Below are positions 4,001 to 36,935 of a stretch of 37,830 nt of DNA, piece after piece (position 1 is the first letter of the stretch; each line of letters opens with the position of its first letter). This DNA is from Chloroflexota bacterium. Lineage in GTDB: Bacteria; Chloroflexota; Anaerolineae; B4-G1. Location: assembly GCA_011046405.1 (NCBI GenBank), contig DSAR01000164.1, positions 1 through 37,830 of the forward strand, written 5' to 3'. Below the pieces are notes generated by a model. It did not search any database and had not been told where the DNA came from. It saw nothing but the letters and a program-made list of their open reading frames with translations. The position numbers and the translations under genes are program-made.

Positions 4001-4050
4001 GGCGTAAGGGGTAGCGATTCAATAACGCGGCTTTCGACGACAGAAACCTG

Positions 4051-4090
4051 AGCGGGGCGAACGATTGACGATTCGCCCCGCTCTGTTTGC
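4051..4090 (+). terminator. rho-independent-type terminator after the chitinase gene
   Basis: Perfect 11-bp stem AGCGGGGCGAA / TTCGCCCCGCT (4051-4082) with a 10-nt loop, followed by a CTGTTTGC tail. The T-tract is weak. Confidence 0.55.
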
Positions 4091-4265
4091 CCCTCACCAG
4101 GCGAGAAAGCGGGTTTAGGGCAATACGGTTTAGATAAGCTGGGGGTATCTACTCACCTTGCGCCCGCCGGATCACAATCCGGAAGCCGGATCGTAATCCG
4201 CTCTGCACATATATACTGAGCAGCAGTTACGTATTCTGTTCCTGCTTCATGAGGCTGATGCCGTT

Positions 4266-6023
4266 CTAACGGCCAAATTCTTGAGCCAAGCGCTCGACGG
4301 TCAGGTGAATCATAGTGGGACGCCCATGAGGACACGTGAGCGGGTTCTCACACTGCTCCAGGGCGCGTATCAGTTCCTCCATCTCGGCCCGAGACATCAC
4401 CTGACCGGCCTTGATCGCGGCCCGCTTGCACACGTGCCGCGCAACCTTTTCCTCCAGCGTCTCCACCAGGGGCGCGTCCCCCGCGTCCAACGCCGCCGCG
4501 ACGTCCTCCAGCACGTTGCCAGGGCTGGCCTGGGCGACGATGGCGGGCACAGCCCGCACCAGCATCGTATTTCCGCCAAAGGGCTCCACTTGAAATCCCA
4601 AACTATCCAAAACCTCCAGGTGCTCCTCCAGCAGGCCCGCGGCCTCGGCCCCCAATTCGACGCTTTGAGGTTCCAGCAGGACCTGCGAGGCGACCCGGGC
4701 CTGTTCACGCTGAGACAACAACTGCTCGAACAGCACCCGTTCGTGAGCGGCGTGTTGATCGATCAGGTACATCCCCGCCGGCCCCTCGGCGACGACGTAG
4801 GTGGCGCCCACCTGCCCAATGACGCGCAGCGGGGGGATCCGGTCGGTCGCTGGCGCCAGCACGCTCTCCTCCGCATCGCTCCTGTCGGACGCCCTTTCTT
4901 CGAAGCGAAGCTGTCTCCCGGTCGCTGATGATTCCAGGTGGGATAAGCGGTCGAGACGCTCCTCCCGGCGGCGGTCAAACGATGTGGGCCAGGCCATGGC
5001 CGTCCGGGTCGCGACCGGCGTCGGCGACCGTTGGAGCAGCGTCTGGCGCACCGCTTTCTGGACGGCCCGGAAGACGACGTCGCCATCCCGGAAGCGCACC
5101 TCCGATTTGGCCGGGTGTACGTTCACGTCCACGTCGGCCGGCGGCAAGTCGACCATCACCACCGCCAGGGGATAGCGTCCGTGGGGGATCAGGGAATGAT
5201 ATGCCTGGATGACGGCGTAGCTCAAACTGGCGTCCTGTACCCACCGCCCGTTGACGAAGAGCGTGATGTAGGTCCGATTGGCCCGGTGCAGAGAGGGCGG
5301 GCTGACGAAACCGGTCACGCGAATATCAGGAGCCGGCTGCGCATCTGCCGGGGTGATTTCCAGGAGAGCGGCCCCAATCTCCAGGTTGTAGACCGCTATC
5401 AGGACGTCGCGCAGGCCGCCGCTGCCTGGAGACTGAAAAGTTACCTTGTCGTCGTGAGCGAGGGTAAAGCGAATTTGGGGATAGGCCATCGCGTAGCGGG
5501 TGAGCCAGGCGTCGATGTGCCGGCGCTCGGTTCGGTTCGTGCGCAGGAACTTGCGGCGAGCGGGGACGTTGAAGAACAAATTCTCGACAGACACCCCCGT
5601 GCCGGGGGGACGCCCGCTTTCCTGGCGGGTGATGATGCGTCCGCCTTCGATTCGCAGCAACACGCCGATGCTTTCGTCGGCTGCTCGTGTCACGAACGTC
5701 ACATGGCTGACGGCAGCGATAGAGGCCAAGGCCTCACCCCGGAACCCCAATGTGGTGATGCGATCCAGATCGTCCGCCGAGTTCAGTTTGCTGGTCGAAT
5801 GGCGCTCGAAAGCGATCTCGACCTCGTCGGCCGGGACGCCGAGGCCATCGTCAGCCACGCGAATGAGCTTTTTCCCACCATCGCGGGTTTCCACACGAAC
5901 GTCCCGTGCGCCAGCGTCTATGCTATTTTCGACCAATTCTTTGACGACAGACGCCGGCCGCTCGACCACTTCACCGGCGGCAATCTGCGACGCGACGTCC
6001 CTGGACAACACCCGAATTGGCAT
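4266..6023 (-). CDS. mutL: DNA mismatch repair protein MutL
   Basis: N-terminus MPIRVLSRDVASQIAAGEVVERPASVVKELVENSIDAGA is the GHKL ATPase signature. C-terminal CPHGRP motif. ATG 6023 is preceded by AAGGAGG with a 5-nt spacer; the ORF-track start 6044 has no RBS. Confidence 0.95.
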   Translation of the reverse strand: MPIRVLSRDVASQIAAGEVVERPASVVKELVENSIDAGARDVRVETRDGGKKLIRVADDGLGVPADEVEIAFERHSTSKLNSADDLDRITTLGFRGEALASIAAVSHVTFVTRAADESIGVLLRIEGGRIITRQESGRPPGTGVSVENLFFNVPARRKFLRTNRTERRHIDAWLTRYAMAYPQIRFTLAHDDKVTFQSPGSGGLRDVLIAVYNLEIGAALLEITPADAQPAPDIRVTGFVSPPSLHRANRTYITLFVNGRWVQDASLSYAVIQAYHSLIPHGRYPLAVVMVDLPPADVDVNVHPAKSEVRFRDGDVVFRAVQKAVRQTLLQRSPTPVATRTAMAWPTSFDRRREERLDRLSHLESSATGRQLRFEERASDRSDAEESVLAPATDRIPPLRVIGQVGATYVVAEGPAGMYLIDQHAAHERVLFEQLLSQREQARVASQVLLEPQSVELGAEAAGLLEEHLEVLDSLGFQVEPFGGNTMLVRAVPAIVAQASPGNVLEDVAAALDAGDAPLVETLEEKVARHVCKRAAIKAGQVMSRAEMEELIRALEQCENPLTCPHGRPTMIHLTVERLAQEFGR

Positions 6024-6219
6024 AAAGCCCTCCTTTGAGTCCATTTAGGAGTTACGCAGTTAGCTCATCAACAACCGGAATTAGCCACGAATTTTGCTTT
6101 TCTATTCGTGGCTGCACTGAAATAAGCCTAGATTTCACCACAGAGACACAGAGAGCACAGAGAATTTAACATTTTACTCAAAAAAATTCACGGTTTGGCA
6201 CGATTTACGTAAAAATTTT

Positions 6220-6369
6220 GGCTCTCTGGTAGTTCGCCTGGTTGGCTTAGCAAGTGGTCAGCTTTTCGCCACGAATTACACGAATTGTCACTAATTTTGG
6301 GTTTTTCGTGTTAATTCGTGCAATTCGTGGCTAATCTCTGACCGCGGCCATGCGAAATCCCAAAGAATC
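6220..6369. repeat. dispersed ~150-bp CACGAAT-palindrome repeat, family A copy 1
   Basis: Nearly identical to 36936-37086 and related to 9533-9705. The core hairpin GCCACGAATTACACGAAT...ATTCGTGCAATTCGTGGC has arms that are reverse complements except for one mismatch (A/G). Flanked by AATTTT on both sides. Confidence 0.85.
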
Positions 6370-6467
6370 AATTTTTCTCCTTGTTCTCGGTGGCTTTGTG
6401 CTAAGATGACCTTTTTTCAGTAGAGTCATTCGTGAAATTCATGGCAGAGAAAGCCTCAACTGCGTAA

Positions 6468-6638
6468 TTTGACAATGGCACATTACAGCGCACAGCGGTT
6501 AAAACCGCGTGGCTACAGCGCGTAAAAATCACGCATTGCAAAACCTGCTTTCGCAGGTTAGTTTATAGTCGGCGTAGGCCGACTTTGCAGTTGTGGCCCG
6601 CGAATTTATTCGCCGGGGACAAATGTGCCATTGTCAAG
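6468..6638. mobile_element. palindromic MITE-like element inserted into the right TIR of the outer element
   Basis: 16-bp perfect inverted termini TTGACAATGGCACATT (6469-6484) / AATGTGCCATTGTCAA (6622-6637). Flanked by a 4-bp direct repeat GTAA (6464-6467 and 6639-6642). Removing the element and one GTAA restores the outer TIR exactly. Confidence 0.75.
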
Positions 6639-6719
6639 GTAACTCCTACCATTATCAAGGGGATTTTATCACACAAACTGACCCAGGCAAAGCGCACAAA
6701 GGGCTGAAATTGTGAACGT

Positions 6720-6748
6720 TTGACTTTTTAGCGCCCTTGGGGTAGCAT
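6720..6748 (+). promoter_or_regulatory. sigma70-type promoter of the SRP RNA gene
   Basis: TTGACT (6720-6725), 17-nt spacer, TAGCAT (6743-6748). The predicted start ~7 nt downstream coincides with the 5' end of the SRP RNA closing helix. Confidence 0.6.
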
Positions 6749-6754
6749 GTTTGT

Positions 6755-7025
6755 GGTCGTGCTAGACGGGGAGCTGGCGGTGCCTTGTACCCGCAATCCG
6801 CCATAGCGGGGTTGAATTCCCTCCCCGAGGAATGTCCTGCTTGATACTGCCCTGGTTATCTGGTGTCGAAGACTGGGTCCTGCGCGGCAGAAATCTCCGA
6901 ACCCCGTCAGGTCCGGAAGGAAGCAGCGGTAAGGAGTATCTCTCTGGGCGCCGCAGGGGTGCCTGGTCGGAGCCGGGTAGCCCGGGTAAGGCGAGTAGTC
7001 CGTTTCGACGGGAGGGTGCACGACC
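6755..7025 (+). ncRNA. ffs: signal recognition particle RNA, long (Bacillus-type, Alu-domain-containing) form
   Basis: Universal helix-8 motif GTCAGGTCCGGAAGGAAGCAGC at 6906-6927. The 5' part GTGCTAGACGGGGAGCTGGCGGTGCCTTGTACCCGCAATCCGCC closely parallels the B. subtilis scRNA Alu domain as I recall it. 5' GGTCGTGC pairs with 3' GCACGACC. Ends are +/- a few nt. Confidence 0.9.
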
Positions 7026-7101
7026 AAAAACAAGACGTCGCCGGATCAAAAGATCGGGGGCGTCCTGGTATTTGGAAAGACCAGATTGATGAATACGCCA
7101 G

Positions 7102-7129
7102 GCGGCGGTCATACCGCCGCTTCTGTGTT
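7102..7129 (+). terminator. hairpin plus T-rich tail downstream of the SRP RNA
   Basis: GCGGCGGT cat ACCGCCGC (7102-7120) followed by TTCTGTGTT. It lies ~75 nt beyond the mature 3' end, which would imply processing of a longer precursor. Confidence 0.45.
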
Positions 7130-7134
7130 ATAAT
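7126..7134 (+). promoter_or_regulatory. possible extended -10 promoter for the YabE-like gene
   Basis: TGT-TATAAT (7126-7134), 33 nt before ATG 7167. No clear -35 and no clear SD. Confidence 0.3.
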
Positions 7135-7166
7135 CTCGTAAACATTTATCCCTTTCGGGTATATCC

Positions 7167-8564
7167 ATGAATTACATTCAAATTCCACGCGGGCTGAAGG
7201 TGCTCGTGGCCTTGATCTTCATCTTCGGCGCCATGGCCGCGGGTTATCAGAACAGTATGACCCCCATCACCCTGGTCGTTGATGGGCAGGAATATGCATT
7301 GCACACGCATCAGAAGACCCTGGGCGCGTTTTTGATGGACATCGGTCTGACCCTTCACCCCAAAGACATCATCTACCCACGACGAATGGATACTCCCCTG
7401 CAATCCAATATGCACGTCGACGTGCAGCGGGCTCAACTCGTCCACATCAACGCCGACGGTCATCACGCATCTCACTATACCCATTCTGGATCAATCGATC
7501 TGATCTTGCAAGAAGCGCGTCTGTCGGTCAATCCCTACGACGAGATAAGGGTCGAAGGCCAGATTCACCCACTCGACGCCGGACTGGATGATCTGAAACC
7601 GGCCCAGATCACGATTCGTCGCGCCACCCCCTTTACGTTGCACGATGGCGAAAATACCTCGACGCACCACAGCATAGCCAATACCGTGGGAGAGGCCCTG
7701 CGCCACGCCGGATTGACGCTTTACCTGGCCGACGGCGTCGAGCCGGCGCTGGGGGAACGGCTATCGGCGGGTATGCACATCCACGTCAATCGCTCGAAAC
7801 CAGTCACGGTTCAAGTGGATGGTCGCACGATGCGCGCCCGCACACACCGGGAGCACGTGGGAGAGGTGCTGGCCGATCTCGGCGTGATATTGACCGGTCA
7901 GGATTATGCCGAACCGCCGCTCGACGATGAATTGGGGGAGCAAACCTCGATTCGAGTGGTCCGGGTCAGCGAGCGATTCTTGATCGAACAGGAGCCTATC
8001 CCCTTCGAGATCCTCTGGCAACCCGATCACGATCTGGAGATCGATCACGAACGGGTGATGCAAGAAGGCGCCCGGGGTGTACGCGAACGGCGCATCCGGG
8101 TACGCTACGAGGACGGACACGAGATAGCGCGGGAGGTTGATAGCCAATACGTCGCCGTCCCACCGACCAACAAGGTATTTGGGTATGGGACCAAAGTCGT
8201 CGTCCGGACTCTCGACACCCCCTCGGGGCCGGTCGAGTATTGGCGCAAGCTGCGCGCGTTGGCGACCTCCTACTCGGCTGGGACGGCGGGGACACCGAGA
8301 TCGAGCCCCTGGTATGGCCGCACGGCCACCGGTATGCAGATGAGACACGGTATCGTGGCTGTCGATCCCCGGGTGATCAAACTGCACAGTCATGTGTATG
8401 TGCCCGGATATGGCGTTGGCATCGCCGGCGATACGGGCGGCGCCATCAAGGGACGGCGAATCGACCTGGGATACGACGACGACAACCTGGTGCTCTGGTA
8501 CCGGTGGGTGGACGTCTACCTCCTCACGCCTGTGCCCGATCAGATTCGGTACGTTCTGGATTAG
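7167..8564 (+). CDS. YabE-like cell-wall protein: N-terminal TM anchor, 3x DUF348, G5 domain, C-terminal 3D (MltA/RlpA-like) domain
   Basis: TM segment LKVLVALIFIFGAMAAG. Three repeats of the pattern VxVDG...H....TVGE.L...G..L...D, consistent with DUF348. G5-like ...EQEPIPFE...RVMQEGARGVRERRIRVRYEDG. 3D-like tail GRTATGMQMRHGIVAVDPRVI...VYVPGYGVGIAGDTGGAIKGRRIDL. It sits directly upstream of rsmA, as yabE does upstream of ksgA in Bacillus. Confidence 0.85.
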   Translation: MNYIQIPRGLKVLVALIFIFGAMAAGYQNSMTPITLVVDGQEYALHTHQKTLGAFLMDIGLTLHPKDIIYPRRMDTPLQSNMHVDVQRAQLVHINADGHHASHYTHSGSIDLILQEARLSVNPYDEIRVEGQIHPLDAGLDDLKPAQITIRRATPFTLHDGENTSTHHSIANTVGEALRHAGLTLYLADGVEPALGERLSAGMHIHVNRSKPVTVQVDGRTMRARTHREHVGEVLADLGVILTGQDYAEPPLDDELGEQTSIRVVRVSERFLIEQEPIPFEILWQPDHDLEIDHERVMQEGARGVRERRIRVRYEDGHEIAREVDSQYVAVPPTNKVFGYGTKVVVRTLDTPSGPVEYWRKLRALATSYSAGTAGTPRSSPWYGRTATGMQMRHGIVAVDPRVIKLHSHVYVPGYGVGIAGDTGGAIKGRRIDLGYDDDNLVLWYRWVDVYLLTPVPDQIRYVLD

Positions 8565-9532: not shown

Positions 9533-9705
9533 GGCTCTCTGCTAGTTCGCGTGCTCGGCTTAGCAAGCGGTCAATTTTTCGCCACGAATGACACGAATTG
9601 TCACTAATCTTTGGGTTTTTCGTGTTGATTCGTGCAAACCTGTCCTGAGCGTAGTCGAAGGATGCGTGGCCAATCTCTCACCGTGACCAAGCGAAATTCT
9701 GAAGG
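9533..9705. repeat. family A CACGAAT-palindrome repeat, copy 2 (diverged, with an internal replacement)
   Basis: GGCTCTCTGCTAGTTCGC...GCCACGAATGACACGAATTGTCACTAAT...TTCGTGTTGATTCGTGCAA...GCGAAATTCTGAAGG aligns to copies 1 and 3. It lies in the 5' region of the bactofilin gene. Confidence 0.8.
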
Positions 9706-9769: not shown

Positions 9770-12700
9770 ATGGATAAGGATAAAAAACCCCAAGAGACCA
9801 CCATTGGCTCCCAAGTCACATTGATCGGTCAGATGGATACCGATCGACCTATGCATATCCGGGGAATTTACGAGGGGGATCTGTCAGTCGCCAACTTGGT
9901 CTTCGTCGAAAAATGTGGCATGTCCAGTGGCAATATCGTGGCGGAACACGTCGTGGTGCATGGCGTCGTTGTTGGCAGCGTGCGAGCCACGCGGGTCGAA
10001 ATTCGGAGCAGCGGCAAGGTATGGGGCAATGTGTGTGCCTATACTTTTTACATTGAGCCAGGGGGATTTGTCCGGGGCCAGATTATCACGCCTGCCCGGC
10101 CTGGTGATACGAATTGGGATGTGGAACTTCCCGTCAATCTCGCGACCCTGCCTTTGCAACCGATGCGGGAAGATGCGCTGGATCATCTGCTAGAAGAGTT
10201 GGAGACGGTCGCTCAAAAGACCTTCATGCCCGACGACGTGCTGTTGCGGCCCCAACCTTTGCAAGTTAAACGGGCGCTGGCGCGAGTCGCCGACGCCAAA
10301 AACTGGATGATCCTGCAGCTTCAATTGGAATACCGCGCATTACAGGAGGCGTTCGAAGAACGAGAGGCCCTGATCGCGCTTTTCCAAGACGAAACTGAGC
10401 AGATGGGCAACGGACGCGAAGCCTCTCTGGTCCGGCAAACTATCGTTCTGGGCAATCAATTGCAACGCCTGCGCAAGGCGGCTGTGCAAAGACAACAGAG
10501 CCTATCCCGGCTGCAGCTCGAATTGATCGAGACACGCCTGTCGTTGCAGGCCGCGCAAAACGAGGTCGAAAACCTGCGCGACGACTTGAACAGACAGAAA
10601 GTCGAGCAAGAAGTGGGGCCAAGCGCTGGAGTTGGACACGATCAGCGCTATGATGATGAAGATGCTGCTGCTGAAAACAGATTGACCACGCACGCCGGGC
10701 CATCCACCGTCGATCTCGCCGCCATCGTTGCAGAGCGAGATCAAGCAACGGTCGAATTGGAAGAGGCGCGAGATCAAATAGAGACCCTGAAGCAGCGACT
10801 CGCCCACCTCCAGGAAGAAAAAGCAACTGCGACGAAAACCGTGGCCCAACTTCAAGACACATTGGAAAAAGCCCAGGGACAAAAGGTGGATTTGGCGGTC
10901 CGATTGTCGCGTGCCAGGAGAACCGTAGAACGCGAAGATATACTGACGGCCAAAGTGGCGGCATTGCGGGATGCCCTGGAGACGAGCCAACGACAGAAGT
11001 CTGATCTGGAACAGACTGTGGAACGGTTGACGAACGAACGAGATGTGATCCGAGAGACACAGAAACAGAAAATGGTCAATCTGGCCAGCGCCATGGCCCG
11101 GAGCGAGCGTTTGGTGTCTGAGCAGGACGACCTGCGGGAGCAAATAGATCATCTCCAGGATACGTTAGCGCATAGTCGTTTGAAGACGGTCGATTTGGAG
11201 CAAACAATCGCCCACTTGACCCAGGAACGGGATGAAGCGCGCGCGATCCAAGCACAAGAACAGACAAAAGAAGAGACGTCTCGCCAGCAAAGCGTTTTGA
11301 TGCAGACCATCGAGCGCCTGGAGAGCGAACGGGACGCCGCCTATGAAGAACGAGAAAAGCAGGAGACCGTGATGGCCGGTTTACAACTGGATTTGAATAC
11401 CGCCCTGGAGAGTGTCGAGCAATTAATGGCCAAACGGGACGAGCTTCGCAACGCACTGGCCACGGCGGAGCGGGAAAAAGAAAGGTTGGCGGAGAAGAGC
11501 AAACAGATAACCAACGAGCGCGATATGGCCCGGGCGGCGCGGGAGCGAGGACAGGCCTCGCTGGCCAACCTGCGCCAGGAGCTGGACGCCGCCGCGGCCC
11601 GCGTCCAGCAGTTGGCGTCCGAGCGAGACACACTGCGGGAAGAGATCGCCCACCTGCGCGAGACCGCCCAGACTGCCGAGGCCCTTCAGGCCGACCTTTC
11701 GGTGCTGCGCGAGGCGCTGGCGGCGGCGGAACGGGAGCGAGACGCGCTGCGCGAGGAGCAGGAAAAGGAGCTGGAAGCGCTGGCCGAGGCGCGAGATGCA
11801 GCCCAGACCGCCCAGGAGCAGGAACTGGAGGCCGCCGCGGCCCGCGTCCAGCAGTTGGCGTCCGAGCGAGACACACTGCGGGAAGAGATCGCCCACCTGC
11901 GCGAGACCGCCCAGACCGCCGAGGCCCTTCAGGCCGACCTTTCGGTGCTGCGCGAGGCGCTGGCGGCGGCGGAACGGGAGCGGGACGCGCTGCGCGAGGA
12001 GCAGGAAAAGGAGCAGGAAGCGCTGGCCGAGGCGCAAGATGCAGCCCGGGCACTGCAGGAACAAAGACAGGCGTCACTGATCGAGTTGCAAGCCGATTTG
12101 AGCGCGGCGCTGGAATGCATCGAGGCTTTACAATCGGAACGGGATCACTTGCAGGAGGAGGCCATCCAACTCAGGAAATCCCTGGGGGCCAATGAGGCCC
12201 GTCGGGTCGAAATGGCCAAACAACTGGCCCTCATAGCCGCCAACCAGGAACGAGAGAGCCCATTGCCGGCGGATGTGACGGCGCTGCACGAAGCGCTGGC
12301 GATCTCTGAGCACAAGCGGAAAGCACTGACCGAAGAACTGAAACAAGTCCAGCAGACCAGTCAAGCCCTCGTTGAGGAACAGCGCCAATCGGACCTGCGG
12401 GATCTGGACGAGCGCTCGGATGACACCAAGGCAGAGATTGAACAGATCGTTGGGGAGCGGGATCGCGCCCAGGCCAAATGGGAGCAGGCACAGGCGAGTA
12501 TCGCACAACTCAACGCCGATTTGAAAGCGGCTCGGCGGCGCATCGTCCGGCTGAAAGATCGGCTGACCGAGCAGGAAGCCGGCGTGGAGCACGGCGTGGA
12601 GCACGGCGTCAGTCTGAAGGAAAAGATCTTGCACGAGTCCAACGTGCACGTGGCCTATTGTCTCCGGTGCCGTGCGCAACGTCTCGTCTCAGAAGTGCGA

Positions 12701-12826
12701 GAGATCGAGATGCCCAATGGTCAACGAGCCGTCAAGGGTCGCTGCGCCGTGTGCGGTGCGGGATTATTCAGCCAGATCCCAGAAGGCCATCAGGTGACCC
12801 AAGATCTGTTGGCGTTCTTGCGTTAG
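9770..12826 (+). CDS. giant bactofilin-domain protein fused to a ~800 aa coiled coil and a C-terminal 4-Cys zinc ribbon (DUF5679-like)
   Basis: From ATG 9770 (MDKDKK). Bactofilin-like beta-helix repeats IGSQVTLIGQM..IRGIYEGDL..VFVEKCGMSSGNIVAEHVVVHGVVVGSVRATRVEIRSSGKVWGNVCAYTFYIEPGGFVRGQI. A long E/R/Q/A/L-rich heptad region follows. C-terminus YCLRCRAQR...MPNGQRAVKGRCAVCGAGLF (Cys codons 12659-12671 and 12743-12754). The ORF-track start 9632 lies inside repeat A2. No strong SD. Confidence 0.8.
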   Translation: MDKDKKPQETTIGSQVTLIGQMDTDRPMHIRGIYEGDLSVANLVFVEKCGMSSGNIVAEHVVVHGVVVGSVRATRVEIRSSGKVWGNVCAYTFYIEPGGFVRGQIITPARPGDTNWDVELPVNLATLPLQPMREDALDHLLEELETVAQKTFMPDDVLLRPQPLQVKRALARVADAKNWMILQLQLEYRALQEAFEEREALIALFQDETEQMGNGREASLVRQTIVLGNQLQRLRKAAVQRQQSLSRLQLELIETRLSLQAAQNEVENLRDDLNRQKVEQEVGPSAGVGHDQRYDDEDAAAENRLTTHAGPSTVDLAAIVAERDQATVELEEARDQIETLKQRLAHLQEEKATATKTVAQLQDTLEKAQGQKVDLAVRLSRARRTVEREDILTAKVAALRDALETSQRQKSDLEQTVERLTNERDVIRETQKQKMVNLASAMARSERLVSEQDDLREQIDHLQDTLAHSRLKTVDLEQTIAHLTQERDEARAIQAQEQTKEETSRQQSVLMQTIERLESERDAAYEEREKQETVMAGLQLDLNTALESVEQLMAKRDELRNALATAEREKERLAEKSKQITNERDMARAARERGQASLANLRQELDAAAARVQQLASERDTLREEIAHLRETAQTAEALQADLSVLREALAAAERERDALREEQEKELEALAEARDAAQTAQEQELEAAAARVQQLASERDTLREEIAHLRETAQTAEALQADLSVLREALAAAERERDALREEQEKEQEALAEAQDAARALQEQRQASLIELQADLSAALECIEALQSERDHLQEEAIQLRKSLGANEARRVEMAKQLALIAANQERESPLPADVTALHEALAISEHKRKALTEELKQVQQTSQALVEEQRQSDLRDLDERSDDTKAEIEQIVGERDRAQAKWEQAQASIAQLNADLKAARRRIVRLKDRLTEQEAGVEHGVEHGVSLKEKILHESNVHVAYCLRCRAQRLVSEVREIEMPNGQRAVKGRCAVCGAGLFSQIPEGHQVTQDLLAFLR
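11579..12064 (+). repeat. in-frame tandem duplication, 2 x 243 bp (81 aa) inside the coiled-coil gene
   Basis: Unit 1 is 11579-11821 and unit 2 is 11822-12064. The two differ at only a handful of positions (e.g. CAGACTGCC vs CAGACCGCC, GAGCTGGAAGCG vs GAGCAGGAAGCG). Confidence 0.95.
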
Positions 12827-12839
12827 AATCGAGGAGCAG

Positions 12840-14138
12840 ATGCGTCGAAGGAACAAGAGACGGATGAGGAGAAAGTACGTTTACCGGGGCATCGTGAGCC
12901 TCGCGTTGTTCGTCGTGATGCTGTGGGCCGGCGAGGCCAGGGCCGGGCGCTACTGGTTGGCCCCGGCGCCGGCCGCACCGGGCGATCCATTCCCTCTCGT
13001 CCAGGGGGCCGGCGATCTTTTTCGACCGGTTGTGGCGATGGACGGCAGCGTCGTCGTGTGGTACGCCTGGAGCGATGACGGGTTGGACGTGTTTGGGTTG
13101 GCGCTGGAGGCGGGTCAGCCACAGGGCGCCCCCTTCACTATAGGAGGCGGTCCCGGCGAGCAAGCGGCGCCCGCGATCTCGCCGGGGAGAGAGGGAGACG
13201 GCTACCTGGTGGTGTGGCACAGCCGGCGAGACGAGGCGGCCGATTTTGACGTCTATGCCCGCTATCTCGACGCCAGAGGGCGGCCGGTCGATGATCCATT
13301 CCCCGTGGCGGCTGGCCTGGGGGACCAACTCCGCCCCGCCGTCGCTTATGCCCCTGTCGTGGACCGGTTCGTCGTCGTCTGGCAGGGGCGGCGCGCCGGG
13401 GCTGAATTCGATCTGCACGCCCGGCTGATACCATCCTTGCCTCGATTGCGAGAGCAGGACGGCGAGATAAGCGGCGGAACCTTCACCGTCAGTTCAGCCC
13501 CTGGCGATCAACTCACGCCGGCCGTGGCCTGCGAGATCGAAGCGCCCCGCTGCCTGGTCGCGTGGATGGATACCCGGAACGCCAACACGCTGGACACCGA
13601 CATCTTCGGGCGCATGATCGACGCCAACGCCGGGACTGTCCTGGGCGACGAGATCGACGTGGCGGTGGAGAGATGGTACCAGGACTCGCCAGCCGTCATC
13701 TACAACCCCGTCAGCCGGGCTTACATGCTCGTTTGGAACGACGACATCGAAAGCCAGCTTGTGAGCAGCGACGGGCGTTCTATTGGCGGGCGGATAAACG
13801 TCTCTCGAGAAAGCCCATTCCAATACAAGCCGGCCATCGCCGTCAACGCTGCGGGCAATTACCTCATCGTATGGGAAGATGGACGCCGTCAGGCAATCCG
13901 AGGCATGGACATCTACGGCCAACGGCTCTCGCCCGACGGCGCGCCGCTGGGACGCAACTTTGCCCTATCGACCGAAGCGCACAATCAATACGCCCCAACA
14001 GTGGCGTTCGACCCTCGCCTGGGAGCATTTTTCGCTGTATGGGAAGATGATCGAGAAAGTGATGACGATGGAAACAGCTACCTCGTCCTGTACGGACAAA
14101 TCCTATCCGACGATGCCGATGACGAGAAGACGCATTAG
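12840..14138 (+). CDS. exported protein built from seven ~55-aa repeats (beta-propeller-like), family unknown
   Basis: GAGGAG RBS (12831-12836). N-terminus is Arg-rich plus hydrophobic with AGEARA-G. Seven copies of the pattern F.V....GDQ..PAVA......(Y/F)LVVW.D.R......DIYG..L...G...G. Confidence 0.8.
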   Translation: MRRRNKRRMRRKYVYRGIVSLALFVVMLWAGEARAGRYWLAPAPAAPGDPFPLVQGAGDLFRPVVAMDGSVVVWYAWSDDGLDVFGLALEAGQPQGAPFTIGGGPGEQAAPAISPGREGDGYLVVWHSRRDEAADFDVYARYLDARGRPVDDPFPVAAGLGDQLRPAVAYAPVVDRFVVVWQGRRAGAEFDLHARLIPSLPRLREQDGEISGGTFTVSSAPGDQLTPAVACEIEAPRCLVAWMDTRNANTLDTDIFGRMIDANAGTVLGDEIDVAVERWYQDSPAVIYNPVSRAYMLVWNDDIESQLVSSDGRSIGGRINVSRESPFQYKPAIAVNAAGNYLIVWEDGRRQAIRGMDIYGQRLSPDGAPLGRNFALSTEAHNQYAPTVAFDPRLGAFFAVWEDDRESDDDGNSYLVLYGQILSDDADDEKTH

Positions 14139-16605
14139 CTCGATAAAGGCACATCGTCGCTGGAGGCCCCTGGCCTTCGTCGCCCTGTGGTTGCCGTTCG
14201 TCGTGGCGTCCTTGCTCTACTCGCCGTTGCCGAAATTGGAACGAACAGCCGTCGATGCCGTTGATGCCGACGAACAGCGGTTGCTGGGGGCTTTTGACCT
14301 GCCCGCCGAACCGATCATGCTCGTGTTCCATCGCGCTGGGGGCCTCGCGCCACAGGACCGGGCCTACTTCAGACGTATCGGACAGGACGTGGGCAAGCAC
14401 ACAGCTTACGGAGAGGCAGAAGGTGAGACCTATGCCCTCGCCCTGGCTTCCAGCGCGCACGTCCAGGAGACGGCTGAACGCCGCGCGGCCCTCCAGGGTT
14501 CTCCCGATGGCCTGTCGACGTACGTCACCGGGAAGCGCGCCCTGGCCTACGATGCCGCCGTCGCGTGGCGGGAGAGCCGATGGCTGGTGCTGGTTGGCTG
14601 CGGGATCGTCGCCGCTTTGGCCGCGTTATTCAGCAAATTTGGCCTCTCCCGCGCCGTGCTCGTGGGGCTCAGCGCCAGCTGCGTGGGAGCGATGGCGAGT
14701 GTATTGGCCGCCCTGCTCGCCCCGCCATTGACCGTTGCCCTGAGCACCACTCTCTCCGCCGGGTTGGCCGGGACGTGGTCCATACGTCTGCTCTCGCCCC
14801 GTCGTCCAGACGATTCGCCTCCCGTCCCGGCGGTGAGACGCGGCGCACCGGCGCAGGCTGGCATGGCCTCTCTCACGTCACCCACCGTGTCCAGGTTGAC
14901 GCCGTTACAGCACGCCATCGTCCAGGCCGGTGAAGGAACGTTGCTCCAGGCCTTCATCGTCATCGCCGGGTTAGCCGGCTTTCTGTTCAACTTGAGAACG
15001 GGGATCGCGTTATTTCTGGGCGTACTCGTAGCCATTGCATTCAGTTTGAGCGGCGCGCCCGCGCTCATCGCCCTCCTGGCGCGTCCCCGCCATCCCCGCC
15101 CCCCGGGCGAGCCAAAACCGCATAAGGGATTTCGCCTGGGACTGGCGGTGCTTCTGGCAGCGGGCGTATTCTGGCTGACGCCCAGTGCCCATCCCATCGA
15201 CGCGGTCCCGTCGTCAGCGGCGTCGGCTGTGGGATACGACCTGTTGCGCGCCAGCGCCATCATCGGGCGCGCGATGCCTTTCCACCTGTTGGCGCAGGCG
15301 CCCACGGCCGGGCGCAGCGACACCAGTTTGGCCGCCCTGGACAACTTGATCGCCGACCTGGAAAATCGAGCGGAGATCGCCGCTGTAGAGGGGCAGGAAG
15401 CCCTACAAGCACGGCCCGGCCCGCCGGCGCCGGTAGAAGAGTGGCTGAGCGGGCGGGAGGGCGTCGCCGGCGCCCTGGCAAAGGACCTGGAAGTGCAAGC
15501 GGGCGCGCTGGCGACAGTGATCGACGTGCTGGAGCGCATACCCTCGGCGACCGCCAGCCCGGCGCCAATTTCAACCAGTCAATCCCTCACGACGTCGTTG
15601 AACGAGACCCGCGTCCGTCTCGACGAGGTCAGAGATACCTTGACGACGGCCAACGCGATGTTGGACAGCGTGCCCATCGAGTTCCCGGAGATCGCTCCCC
15701 GGATGCGCAACGTGCCGGCTCTGAAAGCGCTGCCCGACATTTTGGCCCATGCCGTCGCTGACCTGGCCGATATATCGGCCGATATATCGGCGGACCTATC
15801 AACCATCGTTACGAGCGCCTCTCCGCAGCGCAGCACGTCTGTATCCGTAAACGAACAACTTGCACCGGTGCAGGCTGAATTGACCCGTTCGCTGTCGGCG
15901 CTGGAGGACCTGGCGATCCGCACGTTCGCTCTGCAAGAGGATCTGAACGCCGCCGAGGCTCAATGGGCCAGCGCTGCCCTGGGAGATCCGGCGCCGGTCA
16001 CGCCCAGCCCGTATCTGGTCAGCCACGACCTGATCCGCTTGGCGCTCGTCCCGGCCGGCGACCCATACGCGCCGGCGACCCTGGAGAGCGCCTCGACCTT
16101 GTTGCAAATCATTCAGGACGCGCGGACCAAGGGGCCGTTATCAGACAGCGCCCTTTCATTGTATGGTACACCCGTGGCCGCTAACGCCCGGAAGGATCGA
16201 CACTTGCATAATCTGTGGTTCCCTGGTACCATTCTGGCGACTCTGACGACGATGCTTTGTGCCTGGGGCGCGCTATCACGAGCTGGTCCGGCGCTGCGCT
16301 TGGCGGCTGGCGCGTTGTTGAGCAGTCTGGCGGGCGTGGGGTTGGCCGCCGTGCTGGGACCTGTGGATGTTGGCGTCCTGGCCTCGGCCGGGGTAGTTGT
16401 AGTGGCTGTCGCGGGCGGCCGGATGGCCGCGGGATGGATATCCACGGCCGAGACGTTGGCCCTGGCGCTTCCTCCACTGTGCCTGGGATTGACCGGCATC
16501 CCTGCCCTGGCGACCATGGGCATCGTCACGAGTAGTGGGCTGCTGGCGGGGCGCCTGCTTGTCGCGCCGTCCTGTGGACATCGTCGGCCCGCCGAAATGG
16601 AGTGA
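14113..16605 (+). CDS. large polytopic membrane protein, MMPL/RND-superfamily-like topology
   Basis: Start is ATG 14113 or 14119 (MPMTRRRISS...), overlapping the previous stop (14136-14138). Topology reads TM1, soluble loop, a TM bundle (WLVLVGCGIVAALAALF...), a second TM bundle, a ~430 aa Ala/Leu-rich helical extracytoplasmic insert, then a C-terminal TM bundle. The family call is from topology and weak recall only. Confidence 0.6.
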   Translation: MPMTRRRISSIKAHRRWRPLAFVALWLPFVVASLLYSPLPKLERTAVDAVDADEQRLLGAFDLPAEPIMLVFHRAGGLAPQDRAYFRRIGQDVGKHTAYGEAEGETYALALASSAHVQETAERRAALQGSPDGLSTYVTGKRALAYDAAVAWRESRWLVLVGCGIVAALAALFSKFGLSRAVLVGLSASCVGAMASVLAALLAPPLTVALSTTLSAGLAGTWSIRLLSPRRPDDSPPVPAVRRGAPAQAGMASLTSPTVSRLTPLQHAIVQAGEGTLLQAFIVIAGLAGFLFNLRTGIALFLGVLVAIAFSLSGAPALIALLARPRHPRPPGEPKPHKGFRLGLAVLLAAGVFWLTPSAHPIDAVPSSAASAVGYDLLRASAIIGRAMPFHLLAQAPTAGRSDTSLAALDNLIADLENRAEIAAVEGQEALQARPGPPAPVEEWLSGREGVAGALAKDLEVQAGALATVIDVLERIPSATASPAPISTSQSLTTSLNETRVRLDEVRDTLTTANAMLDSVPIEFPEIAPRMRNVPALKALPDILAHAVADLADISADISADLSTIVTSASPQRSTSVSVNEQLAPVQAELTRSLSALEDLAIRTFALQEDLNAAEAQWASAALGDPAPVTPSPYLVSHDLIRLALVPAGDPYAPATLESASTLLQIIQDARTKGPLSDSALSLYGTPVAANARKDRHLHNLWFPGTILATLTTMLCAWGALSRAGPALRLAAGALLSSLAGVGLAAVLGPVDVGVLASAGVVVVAVAGGRMAAGWISTAETLALALPPLCLGLTGIPALATMGIVTSSGLLAGRLLVAPSCGHRRPAEME

Positions 16606-16609
16606 AAGT

Positions 16610-17200
16610 ATGGATGCTGAGTATATGAAATTGGTCGTGACCGGATCCTTCAACGCTGGCAAGACGACGTTCATTCAGACGGTCAACGAGATCGATGGCG
16701 TCAGCACCGAGGTCCAGACTATGGAGAAGCGCAATGTCAAACGTCAGACCACGGTCGCGATGGACTTTGGCCGGGTGACGTTATCCGGCGGTCTGCGATT
16801 GCACCTGGTGGGCACACCCGGCCAGCGTCGTTTCTCCTTTATGTGGGAGACGTTGATTCTGGAATGCAACGGCGTATTGATGTTGGTGGATAGCAGCGAA
16901 GCGGAAAGCCTGGATGAGACCAGCCGGATGTTCGATTTCTTCGCCGTGCGACTCGGCGACGCGCCGATGTTCGTCGTGGCAAACAAGCAGGATCATCCCC
17001 AGGCGCTTTCACCGACCAGGATCGAGCGATCCTTGAATCTGGTCACTGCGGGATGTGGCGGGAATGGGGGGCGAGAGGTGGCCCTGTTGCCAGCGCCGGG
17101 TTGCGTGGCCCACGATCGCGCTTGTGTGCTCGCCATACTGGAAAGCATCGCCCCGCACCTCGAGCAACGGGGCAATGGCGCAGGGGAATCAAGGCCTTGA
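16610..17200 (+). CDS. Ras-like small GTPase of the CvnD / MglA-related 'ATP/GTP-binding protein' type
   Basis: GGAG RBS, 7-nt spacer, ATG 16610, 4 nt after the previous stop. P-loop GSFNAGKT (16643-16666). TTVAMDFG switch region. G3 GTPGQ (16811-16825). G4 NKQD (16982-16993). Confidence 0.85.
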   Translation: MDAEYMKLVVTGSFNAGKTTFIQTVNEIDGVSTEVQTMEKRNVKRQTTVAMDFGRVTLSGGLRLHLVGTPGQRRFSFMWETLILECNGVLMLVDSSEAESLDETSRMFDFFAVRLGDAPMFVVANKQDHPQALSPTRIERSLNLVTAGCGGNGGREVALLPAPGCVAHDRACVLAILESIAPHLEQRGNGAGESRP

Positions 17201-17351
17201 AAGCTGACCCCATGTTCTGAAAAGTTGACCTTAAGAACAGGAATAGGACGCAGATCAACACAGATGAACGCTGTTTTTTGTCTGCGAAATTCTGCGTCCA
17301 AAAAGACTTGTCAGTCAAGCAGGCCCTGAAACAGAAAAATAATTGGGAGGC

Positions 17352-18197
17352 ATGATGAACGGATCGAATGCAGGAGGAAATGGCGCCTCGATGTCCTCGT
17401 TGGAAAATCGGCTGACCGAAGAGATTCAGGAGATCGCCGACATCGTCCGCCAGGTGCCGGCGGAGGATCCCCTGGGGCGGCTATTGATGCGCGTCATCCG
17501 GCGCCGGCCCTACATCCGGGCGTTAGCGATGATCAGTCCTGGCGGAAAGCTCTGGGCCTCGGCGTTGCCCCAGGACGTGGAGGCGGAAAGTATAGCCGCA
17601 ATGGCCGCTCCTGTCGCCTTGCTGGGGCGGCGGGTCGCCCTGGAACAATTGGGGTCCGATATGCGCCAGACGTACGTAGAGGGCGAGGGCGGGTACGCCA
17701 TCCTCCGGACGGTGGGGCAAGAGGCGGTGTTGCTCATCCTGGCCTCGACTGACGCGAACCTGGCCCTGGTCTTGCACGACGCGGATCTGTTAGAGCAGCA
17801 CGTTGCCCGCGTTCTCGGCGTATCCACCCCAGGCGCTGAAACGTGGACCGATGCCGCGCCGTCGATAGAGAAACTGCGCCGAATGCTCGGTGAAGGTCAA
17901 GGGCTGGAGGATCAGATCACTCACCTGAACGCCCTGCAGGCCAAACTGGAGTCGCTGGACCTGGGCTTGTTCCCAGAGCGGGTGCACGCTATTCGAAGCC
18001 GCCTGGAAGCGCCCACTTGCATCGAGGAAATTGAAGCCGATTTGATCGCTTTGGAACAGGACGTGATGGCTACGTTTGAACAGGATATGGCCTCGTCCGT
18101 CGCCGAACCGGGCGAGAGCGAGCAAGTCTATCGAGAGCATTCATATGTAAGGAGAGCGTTGAAATGGTTAGCATCGATGATCGAATCCGAAGATTAG
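17352..18197 (+). CDS. Roadblock/LC7 (MglB-like) domain protein with a ~140 aa helical C-terminal extension
   Basis: GGGAGG at 17345-17350; start is ATG 17352 or 17355. Roadblock pattern IRALAMISPGGKLWASALPQDVEAESIAAMAAPVALLGRRVA..L......TYVEGEGGYAILRTVGQEAVLLILASTDANLALVLHD. Confidence 0.75.
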   Translation: MMNGSNAGGNGASMSSLENRLTEEIQEIADIVRQVPAEDPLGRLLMRVIRRRPYIRALAMISPGGKLWASALPQDVEAESIAAMAAPVALLGRRVALEQLGSDMRQTYVEGEGGYAILRTVGQEAVLLILASTDANLALVLHDADLLEQHVARVLGVSTPGAETWTDAAPSIEKLRRMLGEGQGLEDQITHLNALQAKLESLDLGLFPERVHAIRSRLEAPTCIEEIEADLIALEQDVMATFEQDMASSVAEPGESEQVYREHSYVRRALKWLASMIESED

Positions 18198-18625
18198 GCG
18201 CGCTGCTGCGCCAGATGCAAGGATTGACGCCCAACATCGAGGCTTCAGCTATCGTCAGTCCTGATGGTCTCGTTCTGGCCTCGTCGCTGCCCGATGGCAC
18301 AGACGAAGAGGAGCTTGGCGCTATGTCGGCGGCGGTGCTCACGTTGGGCGAGCGTATTGCACGAGAACTGCTTTCGGGCCGGGTCAAACAGGTCTACGTC
18401 GAAGGAGAGGGAACCGGTTACGTCTTCTTGACATCTATTGGCAATGAGGCTATCCTAGTAACACTGGCCAACGTCGACGCCAAGTTGGCCCTGGTCTTCA
18501 TGGATATGGGACGTATCGCCGCGGAGGCGCGTCAGATCTTGCAAGAGGATTTATTGACCGAGGTGGAGGAGACGTCAGAGACTGTCCCAGCACTTGGTTT
18601 GCAAGACCCGTTGCAAGAGCAGTGA
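18164..18625 (+). CDS. Roadblock/LC7 (MglB-like) domain protein
   Basis: AAGGAGAG RBS (18149-18156), ATG 18164, 34-nt overlap with the upstream gene. IEASAIVSPDGLVLASSLPDGTDEEELGAMSAAVLTLGERIA..L..G...VYVEGEGTGYVFLTSIGNEAILVTLANVDAKLALVFMDM is a textbook Roadblock/LC7 pattern. Confidence 0.85.
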   Translation: MVSIDDRIRRLGALLRQMQGLTPNIEASAIVSPDGLVLASSLPDGTDEEELGAMSAAVLTLGERIARELLSGRVKQVYVEGEGTGYVFLTSIGNEAILVTLANVDAKLALVFMDMGRIAAEARQILQEDLLTEVEETSETVPALGLQDPLQEQ

Positions 18626-20029: not shown

Positions 20030-20051
20030 TTCAGTGACAGGCGCTTTTGCC

Positions 20052-20161
20052 GTATCATCTCAATAAACCGGGGCAAACTCGCTCGGGCCGGTCTCCCGAC
20101 CGAGCCACAGCGGGCACGGTCAGGAGACCGGCCACAGCTCCCCAACTTATTGAGAAGATAC
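20052..20161 (+). mobile_element. MITE family B, copy 2 (110 bp)
   Basis: Same arms as copies 1 and 3. Flanks CTTTTGCC / CTTTTTCC match 7 of 8. The central 26 bp is the exact reverse complement of that in copy 3 when the arms are aligned. Confidence 0.85.
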
Positions 20162-20319
20162 CTTTTTCCTCCTTTGCTCCCGCTGGATCACAATCCGGCG
20201 GTTTCGGGGCAGGAAAGCGCTTTTCTCGCTCCGCCGAGTGGTGGATTGTGATTCACTACGCACAGAAAGCAAGGCGGAACTCCGCCGCTATTAAAGCGTC
20301 CGGACTTACGCTTCTTCGA

Positions 20320-21291: not shown

Positions 21292-21408
21292 TGTGAATTG
21301 ATCCTTTCTTTTTACTGCCCGACATTCGTGGCCACAAGTCTGATTTTCTATCACGAATTACACGAATGGTCAAATTTCACGAATGCTTTTCCAAGTTAGC
21401 TTGCGCCG

Positions 21409-24648: not shown

Positions 24649-25503
24649 CTAGCCTCTGCCCCGTTCGATCAACGTCGATTCCAGCTTGAGCCCATCTTGA
24701 ACCAGCCGCATGCTGGGGATGCGCTTATCGCGATCTTTTTCCAGCATACAATAGATCAGGTCGACCAAGGCCTGCGGAATCTGGGGGCGAAATCGTTTGA
24801 GGTCTGGAATGGGCTGGGAAATAATGGCGACGGCTGTCGCGCCGACGCTCGTCCCCCTGAAGGGACGCGCCCCGGTCAACATCTCGTACAGGATAATGCC
24901 CAACCCCCACACGTCGGCGCGTCGATCCAGCATTTCGCCGTTACAAGCCTCTGGGCTGAAATAGTTGACGGTACCGACTCGCATGCCGGTCTGGGTCAGC
25001 CGGTCACTGCCGGCGATATAAGCGACACCGAAATCGGTCAGGTAAGGGACGCCCGCCTCGTTCAGCAAGACGTTGGACGGTTTCATATCCCGGTGAATGA
25101 TCCCCTGGCGGTGTGCGTGGGATAGGGCGTCGGCTAAATCAATCCCGATCTCGATGCTTCGCTCGACGGAAAAGACCCCGTTTTCCTTCAGACGATCACG
25201 TAAGGACACGCCAGACACGTATTCCATCACCAGGTAATGGCGTCCTTGATCCTCGACAGCGGCAATCATCTTGACGATGTTAGGGTGACTTAATTGCTGC
25301 AGGACCTCTCCCTCGCGAATGAGTCGATCGACGAGCTTGGCGTCTTCGGCGACAAGCGTGGGCTTCAGGGACTTGATGGCTACTTTCTGCTGGGTGTCCA
25401 AATCAATTCCCCAGTAGACGTTACCCATCCCACCTTTGTTGAGCAATTGTGTCTTCGGATCGGCAATTTTGAAACGTTTGGCAATGATTTGAAGAGCGCT
25501 CAT
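24649..25503 (-). CDS. Ser/Thr protein kinase, catalytic domain only
   Basis: GGMGNVY glycine loop, VAIKSL, HRDMKPSNVLL, DFGVA, SPE: Hanks-type motifs in order. No TM or sensor domain. Confidence 0.9.
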   Translation of the reverse strand: MSALQIIAKRFKIADPKTQLLNKGGMGNVYWGIDLDTQQKVAIKSLKPTLVAEDAKLVDRLIREGEVLQQLSHPNIVKMIAAVEDQGRHYLVMEYVSGVSLRDRLKENGVFSVERSIEIGIDLADALSHAHRQGIIHRDMKPSNVLLNEAGVPYLTDFGVAYIAGSDRLTQTGMRVGTVNYFSPEACNGEMLDRRADVWGLGIILYEMLTGARPFRGTSVGATAVAIISQPIPDLKRFRPQIPQALVDLIYCMLEKDRDKRIPSMRLVQDGLKLESTLIERGRG

Positions 25504-25689: not shown

Positions 25690-25799
25690 GTATCTTCTCA
25701 ATAAGTTGGGGAGCTGTGGCCGGTCTCCCGACCGAGCCACAGCGGGCACGGTCAGGAGACCGGCCCGAGCGAGTTTGCCCCGGTTTATTGAGATGATAC
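25690..25799 (-). mobile_element. MITE family B, copy 3 (inverted relative to copies 1 and 2)
   Basis: Perfect 9-bp target-site duplication ATTGGGCTA (25681-25689 and 25800-25808). The reverse complement is identical to copy 2 in both arms. Confidence 0.9.
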
Positions 25800-36810: not shown

Positions 36811-36935
36811 AACTAGATTACCTCCATTTCATGTGGTGAATAAGAAAACTGTGAGATTTACTGCCTGACACCGATCTGCTATCACGAATCGCACGAATAA
36901 ACGAATTTCACGAATGCTTTTTCACAATTCGAGGT

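Follow-up and report, generated by a model that had tools for sequence, protein, structure and literature searches.

The stretch of DNA analysed here (the window) comprises positions 1 to 37,830 of contig DSAR01000164.1 from a Chloroflexota bacterium of the Anaerolineae (assembly GCA_011046405.1). It contains a cluster of six genes on the forward strand, called here g1 to g6, which encode a bactofilin with a coiled-coil rod and a zinc ribbon (g1), a predicted membrane-anchored β-propeller (g2), a membrane protein that resembles the MmpL4/5 transporters (g3), a small GTPase assigned by its motifs to the MglA family (g4) and two Roadblock/LC7 proteins, one long (g5) and one short (g6) (Table 1). 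An earlier reading of the bare sequence (the original prediction) had placed six open reading frames (ORFs) on this strand, separated by short gaps and overlaps, and the ORF positions confirm both their location and their spacing: g1 and g2 are 13 nucleotides (nt) apart, g2 and g3 overlap by 20-26 nt, g3 is 4 nt away from g4 and g4 151 nt away from g5, and g5 and g6 overlap by 34 nt. Its domain calls were equally borne out by the Pfam profiles, which identify Bactofilin and DUF5679 in g1, a Ras-superfamily GTPase in g4 and Roadblock/LC7 in g5 and g6. The conserved unit is not an indivisible six-gene system; it is a four-gene core (g1, g4, g5 and g6) with exchangeable envelope cargo, since a second type of locus lacks g2 and g3, and in one genome these two genes are found away from g5 and g6.

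Gene order and its conservation

Conservation was surveyed on the contigs of g4 relatives and with the g6 alignment, which was run against GTDB species genomes and JGI metagenomes, the six proteins being compared with every locus. The GTDB scan, with one genome per species, yielded six loci, each of them bearing the label Anaerolineales, Anaerolineae or Chloroflexia, and the JGI scan yielded twelve. The cluster is rare and confined to Anaerolineae.

Two arrangements recur. Type A, with the complete order g1-g2-g3-g4-g5-g6, is present in about ten distinct Anaerolineae lineages (the window and loci L001, L004, L014, L015, L024, L010, L017, L022 and L025), L001 being syntenic with the window in its flanks too. 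Type B (L007, L008/L009, L013/L019, L031 and L033; about five lineages) opens with a short bactofilin-DUF5679 protein (264-430 amino acids, aa), after which come the GTPase, first the long and then the short Roadblock protein, and lastly a VWA protein; g2 and g3 are absent. The GTPase gene and the Roadblock pair have the bactofilin-DUF5679 gene upstream of them in every locus of sufficient length; at L001 the gene caller missed g1 only owing to an assembly gap in its repetitive rod. Since the order is repeated in all related loci of sufficient length, the arrangement is far beyond chance. The co-occurrence of six genes, as originally predicted, stood insofar as the genes adjoin in related genomes, and failed for g2 and g3, missing in type B. 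Identity to the window protein is 79-86% for g6, the most conserved gene of the cluster, 57-68% for g4, 52-65% for g5, 47-57% for g2 and 36-47% for g3. With a short bactofilin-DUF5679 protein as query, a word-indexed homologue search retrieved three proteins, both new ones being located in clusters of this kind, a number too small to gauge the spread of this domain combination outside the system.

The surroundings of the core differ between the two types. In three of the five type B lineages the VWA gene is accompanied, in varying order, by genes for LytR-CpsA-Psr (LCP) enzymes, for a ParA/MinD-like ATPase and for a PAS-GAF-LCP fusion. The LCP, ParA/MinD-like and PAS/GAF genes are located at 4023-8851 of L007, at 3037-7869 and 13338-16796 of L031 and at 4905-6734 and 13229-17441 of L013, one of the PAS/GAF proteins being a PAS-GAF-LCP fusion of 1150 aa. 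The ParA/MinD-like neighbours echo the bactofilin-ParA link of Myxococcus. In the 5.2-Mb Anaerolineae metagenome-assembled genome (MAG) GCA_041300525.1 the cluster is split and decayed (L018 9063-10810, L034 8521-13862). One site holds a g1-like gene with DUF5679 and without the bactofilin domain, together with g2 and g3; the other, 2 Mb away, holds g5 and a truncated g6 that stops after residue 113, beside a transposase-like ORF. Read-through of this truncated g6 translates the tRNA-like GGTTCGAATCC.

The junction between g4 and g5 is the widest of the cluster in the window. It contains a perfect inverted repeat of 9 nt with arms GGACGCAGA at 17246-17254 and TCTGCGTCC at 17291-17299, and an element similar to a Shine-Dalgarno sequence, GGGAGG, precedes the ATG of g5. 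In the gene-called orthologous loci the same junction varies between an overlap of 4 nt and a distance of 70 nt, the 151-nt spacer being specific to the window. A heptad palindrome with no obvious terminator had been announced for this spacer: the inverted repeat is present and a canonical terminator was not found within the 151 nt, but the CACGAAT heptads lie upstream of g1 instead (9533-9637). Promoter and terminator scans did not exceed the shuffled expectation and have no bearing either way on internal transcription units, and Rfam gave no RNA family in the cluster.

These data bear on the simplest alternative, namely that the genes are neighbours by chance and functionally uncoupled, g2-g3 being an exporter operon of MmpL/accessory type, g4-g6 a generic GTPase/Roadblock trio and g1 an independent cytoskeletal gene. 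The separation of g2-g3 from g5-g6 in one genome, the structured 151-nt spacer of the window and the g1-g4 gaps of 106-180 nt in some type B loci could be read in that sense. However, g1 is upstream of g4-g6 in all of the about 15 lineages, with or without g2-g3 and with zero exceptions among the sufficiently long loci, the other gaps or overlaps measure 3-13 nt, and the nearest paralogues of the GTPase are accompanied neither by g1 nor by the Roadblock pair. As a whole we consider this alternative highly improbable; independent maintenance of the g1/g4-g6 core is very unlikely, whereas the coupling of g2-g3 is looser.

Table 1. Genes, domains and repeats of the cluster and its borders (positions in the window).
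Feature	Position	Strand	Description
g1	9770-12826	+	1018 aa; bactofilin, coiled-coil rod and DUF5679 ORF
g1 Bactofilin domain	9797-10084	+	aa 10-105; Pfam
g1 tandem duplication	11576-12061	+	near-perfect, 243 bp (81 aa), in the coiled coil; Tandem Repeats Finder 1.9 copies, 97% matches; repeat family D2, 95%
g1 DUF5679 zinc ribbon	12656-12760	+	aa 963-997; four Cys (CxxC...CxxC); Pfam E 9e-8, 32.5 bits; kept in orthologues
g2	12840-14138	+	432 aa; N-terminal transmembrane helix/signal anchor and extracytoplasmic β-propeller (predicted)
g3	14113 (or 14119)-16605	+	about 830 aa; putative divergent MMPL/RND-like polytopic membrane protein
g4	16610-17200	+	196 aa; MglA-family (group-5-like) small GTPase, by motifs
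g4-g5 spacer hairpin	17246-17299	+	perfect 9-nt inverted repeat; minimum free energy z = -2.1
g5	17352-18197	+	281 aa; long Roadblock/LC7 protein
g6	18164-18625	+	153 aa; short Roadblock/LC7 protein
Dispersed intergenic CACGAAT-heptad repeat, g1 upstream region	9533-9637		copies at 6220-6324 and 36936-37040; bounds the cluster, outside the system
GC-rich hairpin repeats 3' of g6	18664-18852		copies at 20048-20163 and 25713-25770; bound the cluster

The GTPase and its two Roadblock partners

Protein g4 matches the Pfam families Arf, ATP_bind_1 (PF03029), Ras and Roc, and its best solved relatives by plain sequence are Sar1 and Arl2 (about 1e-8). It has the P-loop GxxxxGK[T/S] that characterizes the MglA family (G1, GSFNAGKT from G12 to T19) and the conserved Thr of G2 (T47-T48), followed by GTPGQ at G3 (68-72) and NKQD at G4 (125-128). 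All of these are invariant across the 16 orthologues, as GxFNAGKT, QTTVAMDFG, GTPGQ and NKQD (ANKQD). In group 1 MglA proteins an intrinsic Arg is located beside the G2 Thr and G3 reads TVPGQ (Wuichet and Sogaard-Andersen 2014, PMC4316618), whereas groups 2-5 have in common a Thr at the position of the Arg finger and the GTPGQ motif; the [NT]KxD form of G4 is retained in groups 1, 4 and 5, while groups 2 and 3 lack the Lys, group 2 having NxFD (PMC4316618). The cluster GTPase thus departs from group 1, with TT at the Arg-finger position and GTPGQ rather than TVPGQ, agrees in both respects with groups 2-5, and differs from group 2 by its canonical [NT]KxD. Group 4 is essentially limited to methanogens and the Chloroflexi fall within the taxonomic range of group 5 (PMC4316618). 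Since GTPGQ and TT fit groups 2-5, NKQD fits groups 1, 4 and 5, and group 4 is practically one of methanogens, g4 is, as judged from its motifs, an MglA-family GTPase of group-5-like type, the choice between groups 4 and 5 being made by taxonomy alone. Coupling to MglB within four genes is also observed, g5 and g6 (both PF03259) being directly downstream of g4 in all loci. As the G2, G3 and G4 motifs of g4 fit the MglA family, g4-g6 would constitute an MglA/MglB-type switch with a GTPase to Roadblock ratio of 1:2. The original prediction that the layout is neither an mglBA pair nor a conservon was correct in that conservon genes are absent, but the TT/GTPGQ/NKQD motifs bring the GTPase within the MglA family.

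The gene neighbourhoods of group 5 have been described as widely variable, with occasional PATAN genes and with unknown partners and functions (PMC4316618). The close relatives of g4 (P0002-P0034) show 54-69% identity and 191-259 bits, after which the score drops to 133 bits with generic Chloroflexota "ATP/GTP-binding proteins". The two nearest paralogues that were looked up (43-45% identity) adjoin PATAN (PatA_N) proteins and are accompanied neither by a Roadblock pair nor by a bactofilin; the link with the bactofilin and the Roadblock proteins is therefore specific to the g4 subfamily.

Both partners match Robl_LC7 in Pfam (g5, E 1e-9; g6, E 7e-18) and are paralogues with 45-47% identity over the Roadblock domain. 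Their best solved relative is 7f8m (g6, E 1.4e-24), and the structure of CvnB5, 3leq, is matched as well (g6, E 3e-7). In the orthologue alignment g6 carries SP[D/E]G, an acid-Gly pair that lines up with the DG of 7f8m, and g5 has SPGG without exception. The MglB proteins coupled to groups 2-5 have a conserved Asp-Gly pair whose Asp is close enough to reach the GTPase (PMC4316618); the SP[D/E]G of g6 and the SPGG of g5 were equated with that published column by eye. The 34-nt overlap of the two genes is retained in nearly all gene-called loci.

Beyond the Roadblock domain (about aa 50-131) g5 has an extension of about 150 aa with several helices. It includes a single unit of a helical repeat at about aa 185-248, followed by a linker of variable sequence and a near-invariant terminal helix. 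The latter reads SYVRRALKWLASMIESED in the window (SYVRR...) and SFLRRALKWLASMIESED in the consensus of most orthologues, and the overlap with g6 constrains only its last 11 codons. The AlphaFold2 (AF2) model of g5, built on a six-sequence alignment, is of low confidence (predicted local distance difference test, pLDDT, 56), and its secondary structure alone was used. A HMMER search of 1.84 billion cluster representatives gave three clusters with E < 1e-30 to g5. The repeat unit at about aa 185-248 (window 17904-18095) belongs to a helical repeat that has no name and is covered by no Pfam family; it measures about 60-95 aa and follows the pattern KL.SLDL.GFE.E...IR.KLKDP....E.EL..LE.KI. Large proteins without annotation (P0228, P0245, P0247, P0267, P0279 and P0289) contain three to seven tandem units of it, and such multi-repeat proteins also bear MIT/TPR, zinc-ribbon or DnaA-type ATPase domains.

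A conservon-like signalling module, in which the GTPase and the Roadblock proteins relay an environmental signal, as in Streptomyces CvnA-D and mycobacterial MfpB-MfpA, and the bactofilin is an output or anchor instead of a scaffold, would explain several of these traits: the match of g4 to PF03029 and the name "ATP/GTP-binding protein" given by NCBI to its relatives, as for CvnD; the match of the Roadblock proteins to the CvnB5 structure; the GTPGQ common to g4 and group 2; and the PAS/GAF sensor proteins that flank type B loci. The core is nevertheless deprived of the other conservon elements, given that neither a HisKA/HATPase sensor kinase nor DUF742 (CvnC) was found among the six proteins, the scanned window ORFs of at least 200 aa or the type A loci, which is what had been predicted; the sole kinase among the scanned window ORFs is an unrelated Ser/Thr kinase at 24649-25503. 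Moreover, the G4 of g4 is the canonical NKQD and not the NxFD that defines group 2, and the invariant partner is a cytoskeletal protein. On balance a signalling module seems unlikely.

The bactofilin, the envelope proteins and the flanks

The Bactofilin domain of g1 (PF04519) is recognized with E 2.6e-17 and 63.3 bits against a cut-off of 27.9, over positions 1-97 of the 98 of the profile, and is separated from the DUF5679 domain by about 850 aa of coiled coil. The Bactofilin domain (53-74 bits) is N-terminal and DUF5679 is C-terminal in every complete g1 orthologue, but the total length varies from 264 to about 1100 aa and alignment is limited to both end domains. The rod of the window protein includes the tandem duplication given in Table 1, and the corresponding region of the syntenic locus L001 is an assembly gap (a run of N). 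Since the 243-bp units are 95-97% identical and orthologue lengths vary, the length of the rod appears to be under active evolution.

The AF2 model of g2, built with 66 sequences, has a pLDDT of 92.7 and a predicted template-modelling (TM) score of 0.89, with a helix at aa 2-30 and the rest folded as an all-β propeller. We are confident that g2 is, as modelled, a membrane-anchored β-propeller. In Foldseek the model retrieved generic propellers alone (sialidase, glycoside hydrolase, TolB and WD40; TM-scores 0.5-0.55), matches too generic for an enzymatic or binding function of g2 to be read from them, and the profile of g2 orthologues gave no match among the PDB sequences. PF22847 (Glyco_hydro_43_rel) is faint or absent on g2 itself and is recorded on many homologues, some of which are fused to SLH, PKD or FlgD-Ig domains; these fusions fit a surface location of the family. 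A distant g2 paralogue, P0146, is found without an MMPL-like neighbour, so the g2-g3 pairing would be specific to the orthologues.

The window protein g3 has no Pfam match, and TIGR00833 reaches only E 1.3e-3 and 17 bits, against a cut-off of 875. A profile of eight g3 orthologues matched MmpL4 in the PDB (9b43_A, E 2.6e-5) over query positions 302-775, that is, the seventh transmembrane helix, the outer loop and the C-terminal transmembrane bundle, and MmpL5 weakly (E >= 0.017); two of the eight orthologues match the Pfam MMPL family itself (PF03176, E 4.9e-5). Hydropathy places one transmembrane segment at 17-40, others at 154-362, a loop at 363-726 and further transmembrane segments at 727-817, a distribution compatible with the 12-helix, two-loop layout of resistance-nodulation-division (RND) proteins, the second outer loop being helical/coiled-coil and about 360 aa long. 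In sequence, g3 hence looks like a diverged RND protein of the MmpL4/5 type with a loop of coiled-coil character. Although invisible to Pfam in the window, the propeller-like and MMPL-like characters attributed to g2 and g3 in the original prediction were recovered, the former by AF2 and Foldseek and the latter by the match of the orthologue profile to MmpL4.

The cluster is preceded by mutL, the signal recognition particle (SRP) RNA, a G5/3D protein and rsmA, and followed by a LysM protein and, further on, gatB. A mobile-element origin was rejected, as the flanks consist of housekeeping genes (mutL, rsmA, SRP RNA and gatB) and are syntenic with L001, and so was a defence island, PADLOC having given no defence system, just coiled-coil noise to LmuB. 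The large bacterial SRP RNA is located at 6757-7023 (+; Rfam, 181 bits). The CACGAAT/ATTCGTG heptad repeat family occupies the intergenic regions 6220-6367, 9533-9637, 21342-21393 and 36873-37084, the second of which falls in the presumed promoter region of g1. Hairpin repeats that are GC-rich and similar to repetitive extragenic palindromes (GGCCGGTCTCCCGACCG...) are present in several intergenic regions, one of them directly downstream of g6. Elsewhere in the window, positions 1772-4000 (+) encode a protein similar to GH18 chitinases that has CBM5/12 and a P-domain; the preceding ORF at 5-1612 (+) has no Pfam match and has in common with it repeats of 15-nt periodicity (family D1). A stand-alone Cas4/PD-(D/E)XK nuclease-like ORF is located at 29358-30068 (-), and no CRISPR/cas context was seen in the window.

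Proposed switch and comparison with known systems

The cargo genes of both types encode envelope proteins, and for this reason we favour, with moderate confidence, a model in which the cluster is a small-GTPase switch tethered to the cytoskeleton that positions or gates envelope assembly. In the model, g1 would polymerise through its N-terminal bactofilin domain and expose the DUF5679 zinc-ribbon head at the far end of a rod of variable length. Translational coupling of the overlapping g5 and g6 genes would yield both proteins in a 1:1 ratio. Considering (i) the overlap of these genes; (ii) their paralogy; (iii) the asymmetry of their motifs, and (iv) the analogy with MglB, whose dimer is described as binding one MglA asymmetrically (PMC11016934), we infer that g5 and g6 form an asymmetric heterodimer that docks on g1. 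Within it g6, with its acid-Gly pair, would supply the surface facing the GTPase, of the GTPase-activating protein (GAP) type, whereas g5, having lost the acid residue, would contribute the helical repeat and the terminal helix for tethering or for an allosteric contact similar to that of a GEF (guanine nucleotide exchange factor). The nucleotide state of g4 would then determine where or when, with respect to the bactofilin scaffold, the envelope proteins adjacent to the core are active. In type A this cargo would be the membrane-anchored propeller g2 and the MmpL4/5-like RND transporter g3 with its coiled-coil stalk; in type B it would be the VWA protein, three of the five lineages having LCP enzymes and the ParA/MinD-like ATPase close by.

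Several observations weigh against this model. The proposed contacts have been deduced from genes and sequences, and the envelope theme from neighbours, among which the G5/3D protein, rsmA and the LysM protein may be syntenic housekeeping genes. In GCA_041300525.1 the GTPase is absent near both half-clusters, so that g2-g3 can exist without the switch, at least in that genome. The DUF5679 tail of g1 has no meaningful relative among the PDB sequences, and direct inspection of the g1 N-terminus (MDKDKKPQETT) revealed no obvious hydrophobic membrane-targeting peptide. Finally, AF2 modelled g5 poorly (pLDDT 56), and the system has been found solely in MAGs and metagenomes.

The same components could build a strict MglA/MglB switch for motility or polarity, setting the leading and lagging poles or the gliding of the filament, with g2-g3 in a motor spanning the envelope or in an exporter of slime or adhesin. 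The family of g4 and its Roadblock partners agree with it, a coiled-coil-stalked RND protein together with a propeller could span the envelope, and SofG-BacP offers a precedent in the positioning of pilus motors (PMC4316618). Nonetheless, neither the window nor any of the related loci was found to contain pilus, Glt/Agl-like, Frz/Che or RomR/RomX-like genes, g4 has TT where group 1 carries its intrinsic arginine finger, and g2-g3 are dispensable in type B. Besides, Anaerolineae are mostly described as non-motile filaments. We deem a motility switch quite unlikely: the scanned window proteins gave no indications of motility, phosphorelay or phage defence, and the neighbours point to envelope assembly and to nothing specific to motility.

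A bolder version of the envelope-assembly switch, put forward tentatively and with considerable doubt, is that of a molecular ruler gated by nucleotide. Fast-evolving rod arms of a bactofilin filament would end in zinc-ribbon heads docking the MglA-like GTPase and the Roadblock heterodimer, and would place wall or envelope machines, either the MMPL-like exporter with the propeller or LCP/VWA proteins, in multicellular Anaerolineae filaments. If true, Roadblock/GTPase platforms tethered to a scaffold, of which Ragulator-Rag is an example, would have a counterpart in prokaryotes.

All components of the cluster belong to known families, and the partnership of a bactofilin with a small GTPase has a precedent in SofG-BacP, to our knowledge the only one studied. 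The original prediction could not map the cluster to a described system, and indeed no published description of it was found in the full-text literature on bactofilin with Roadblock and GTPase, on DUF5679 and on bactofilin in Chloroflexi. Here, a pairing of this kind is built into an operon, in a phylum that is unrelated, little studied and for the most part uncultivated. The cluster also delimits the candidate interactors, namely a bactofilin with a zinc ribbon, a pair of Roadblock proteins that are not equivalent, and envelope cargo that can be exchanged. Three questions become testable with purified proteins, namely how the GTPases of groups 2-5, devoid of the Arg finger, are activated, whether bacterial Roadblock heterodimers serve as asymmetric GAP/GEF platforms, and how bactofilins recruit clients. 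The cluster also gives a context to DUF5679 and to the unnamed helical repeat.

With the MglA-MglB systems of Myxococcus xanthus and Thermus thermophilus the cluster has in common a Ras-superfamily GTPase gene beside Roadblock/LC7 gene(s), the replacement of the G3 Asp (xTPGQ) and the extra sequence between G1 and G2; systems with one GTPase and two MglB proteins are already known in groups 1 and 3 (PMC4316618). It differs in having TT for the intrinsic Arg finger and GTPGQ for TVPGQ, two distinct Roadblock paralogues, one of them with a helical extension of 150 aa, and an obligatory tie to a bactofilin-zinc-ribbon gene, without RomR/RomX, MglC or Frz genes. The actinobacterial conservon CvnA-CvnB-CvnC-CvnD (MglA group 2) is similar in its GTPGQ, its PF03029 match, its Roadblock proteins of CvnB5 type (3leq) and its nature of conserved multi-gene cassette; the cluster, however, is without sensor kinase or DUF742, has NKQD instead of NxFD and two Roadblock genes, and carries bactofilin and envelope genes instead. 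Regarding g3 alone, the mycobacterial siderophore exporters MmpL4 and MmpL5, RND/MMPL proteins with a periplasmic coiled-coil stalk, would share with it the layout of 1+5+1+~5 transmembrane helices and a long helical second outer loop, but the similarity is very weak and the neighbour of g3 is a β-propeller gene, not an MmpS-like partner.

In the eukaryotic Ragulator/Rag system, as in the cluster, two different Roadblock-fold proteins are encoded with one small GTPase, an analogy that suggests a heterodimeric tethering platform; the relation does not extend at the sequence level past the Roadblock fold, and the heterodimer of the cluster is a proposed one. The sofG and bacP genes are, as far as we know, not operon partners. 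SofG acts with the bactofilin BacP to place PilB/PilT in M. xanthus (Bulyha et al. 2013, as cited in PMC4316618), and is a group 1 protein, an orphan without a coupled MglB (PMC4316618). In that case the pairing was established by experiment and BacP has neither coiled-coil rod nor DUF5679, whereas the cluster presents a genomic link, conserved and in a different phylum. Both would join a bactofilin polymer with an MglA-family small GTPase in a partnership for subcellular positioning.

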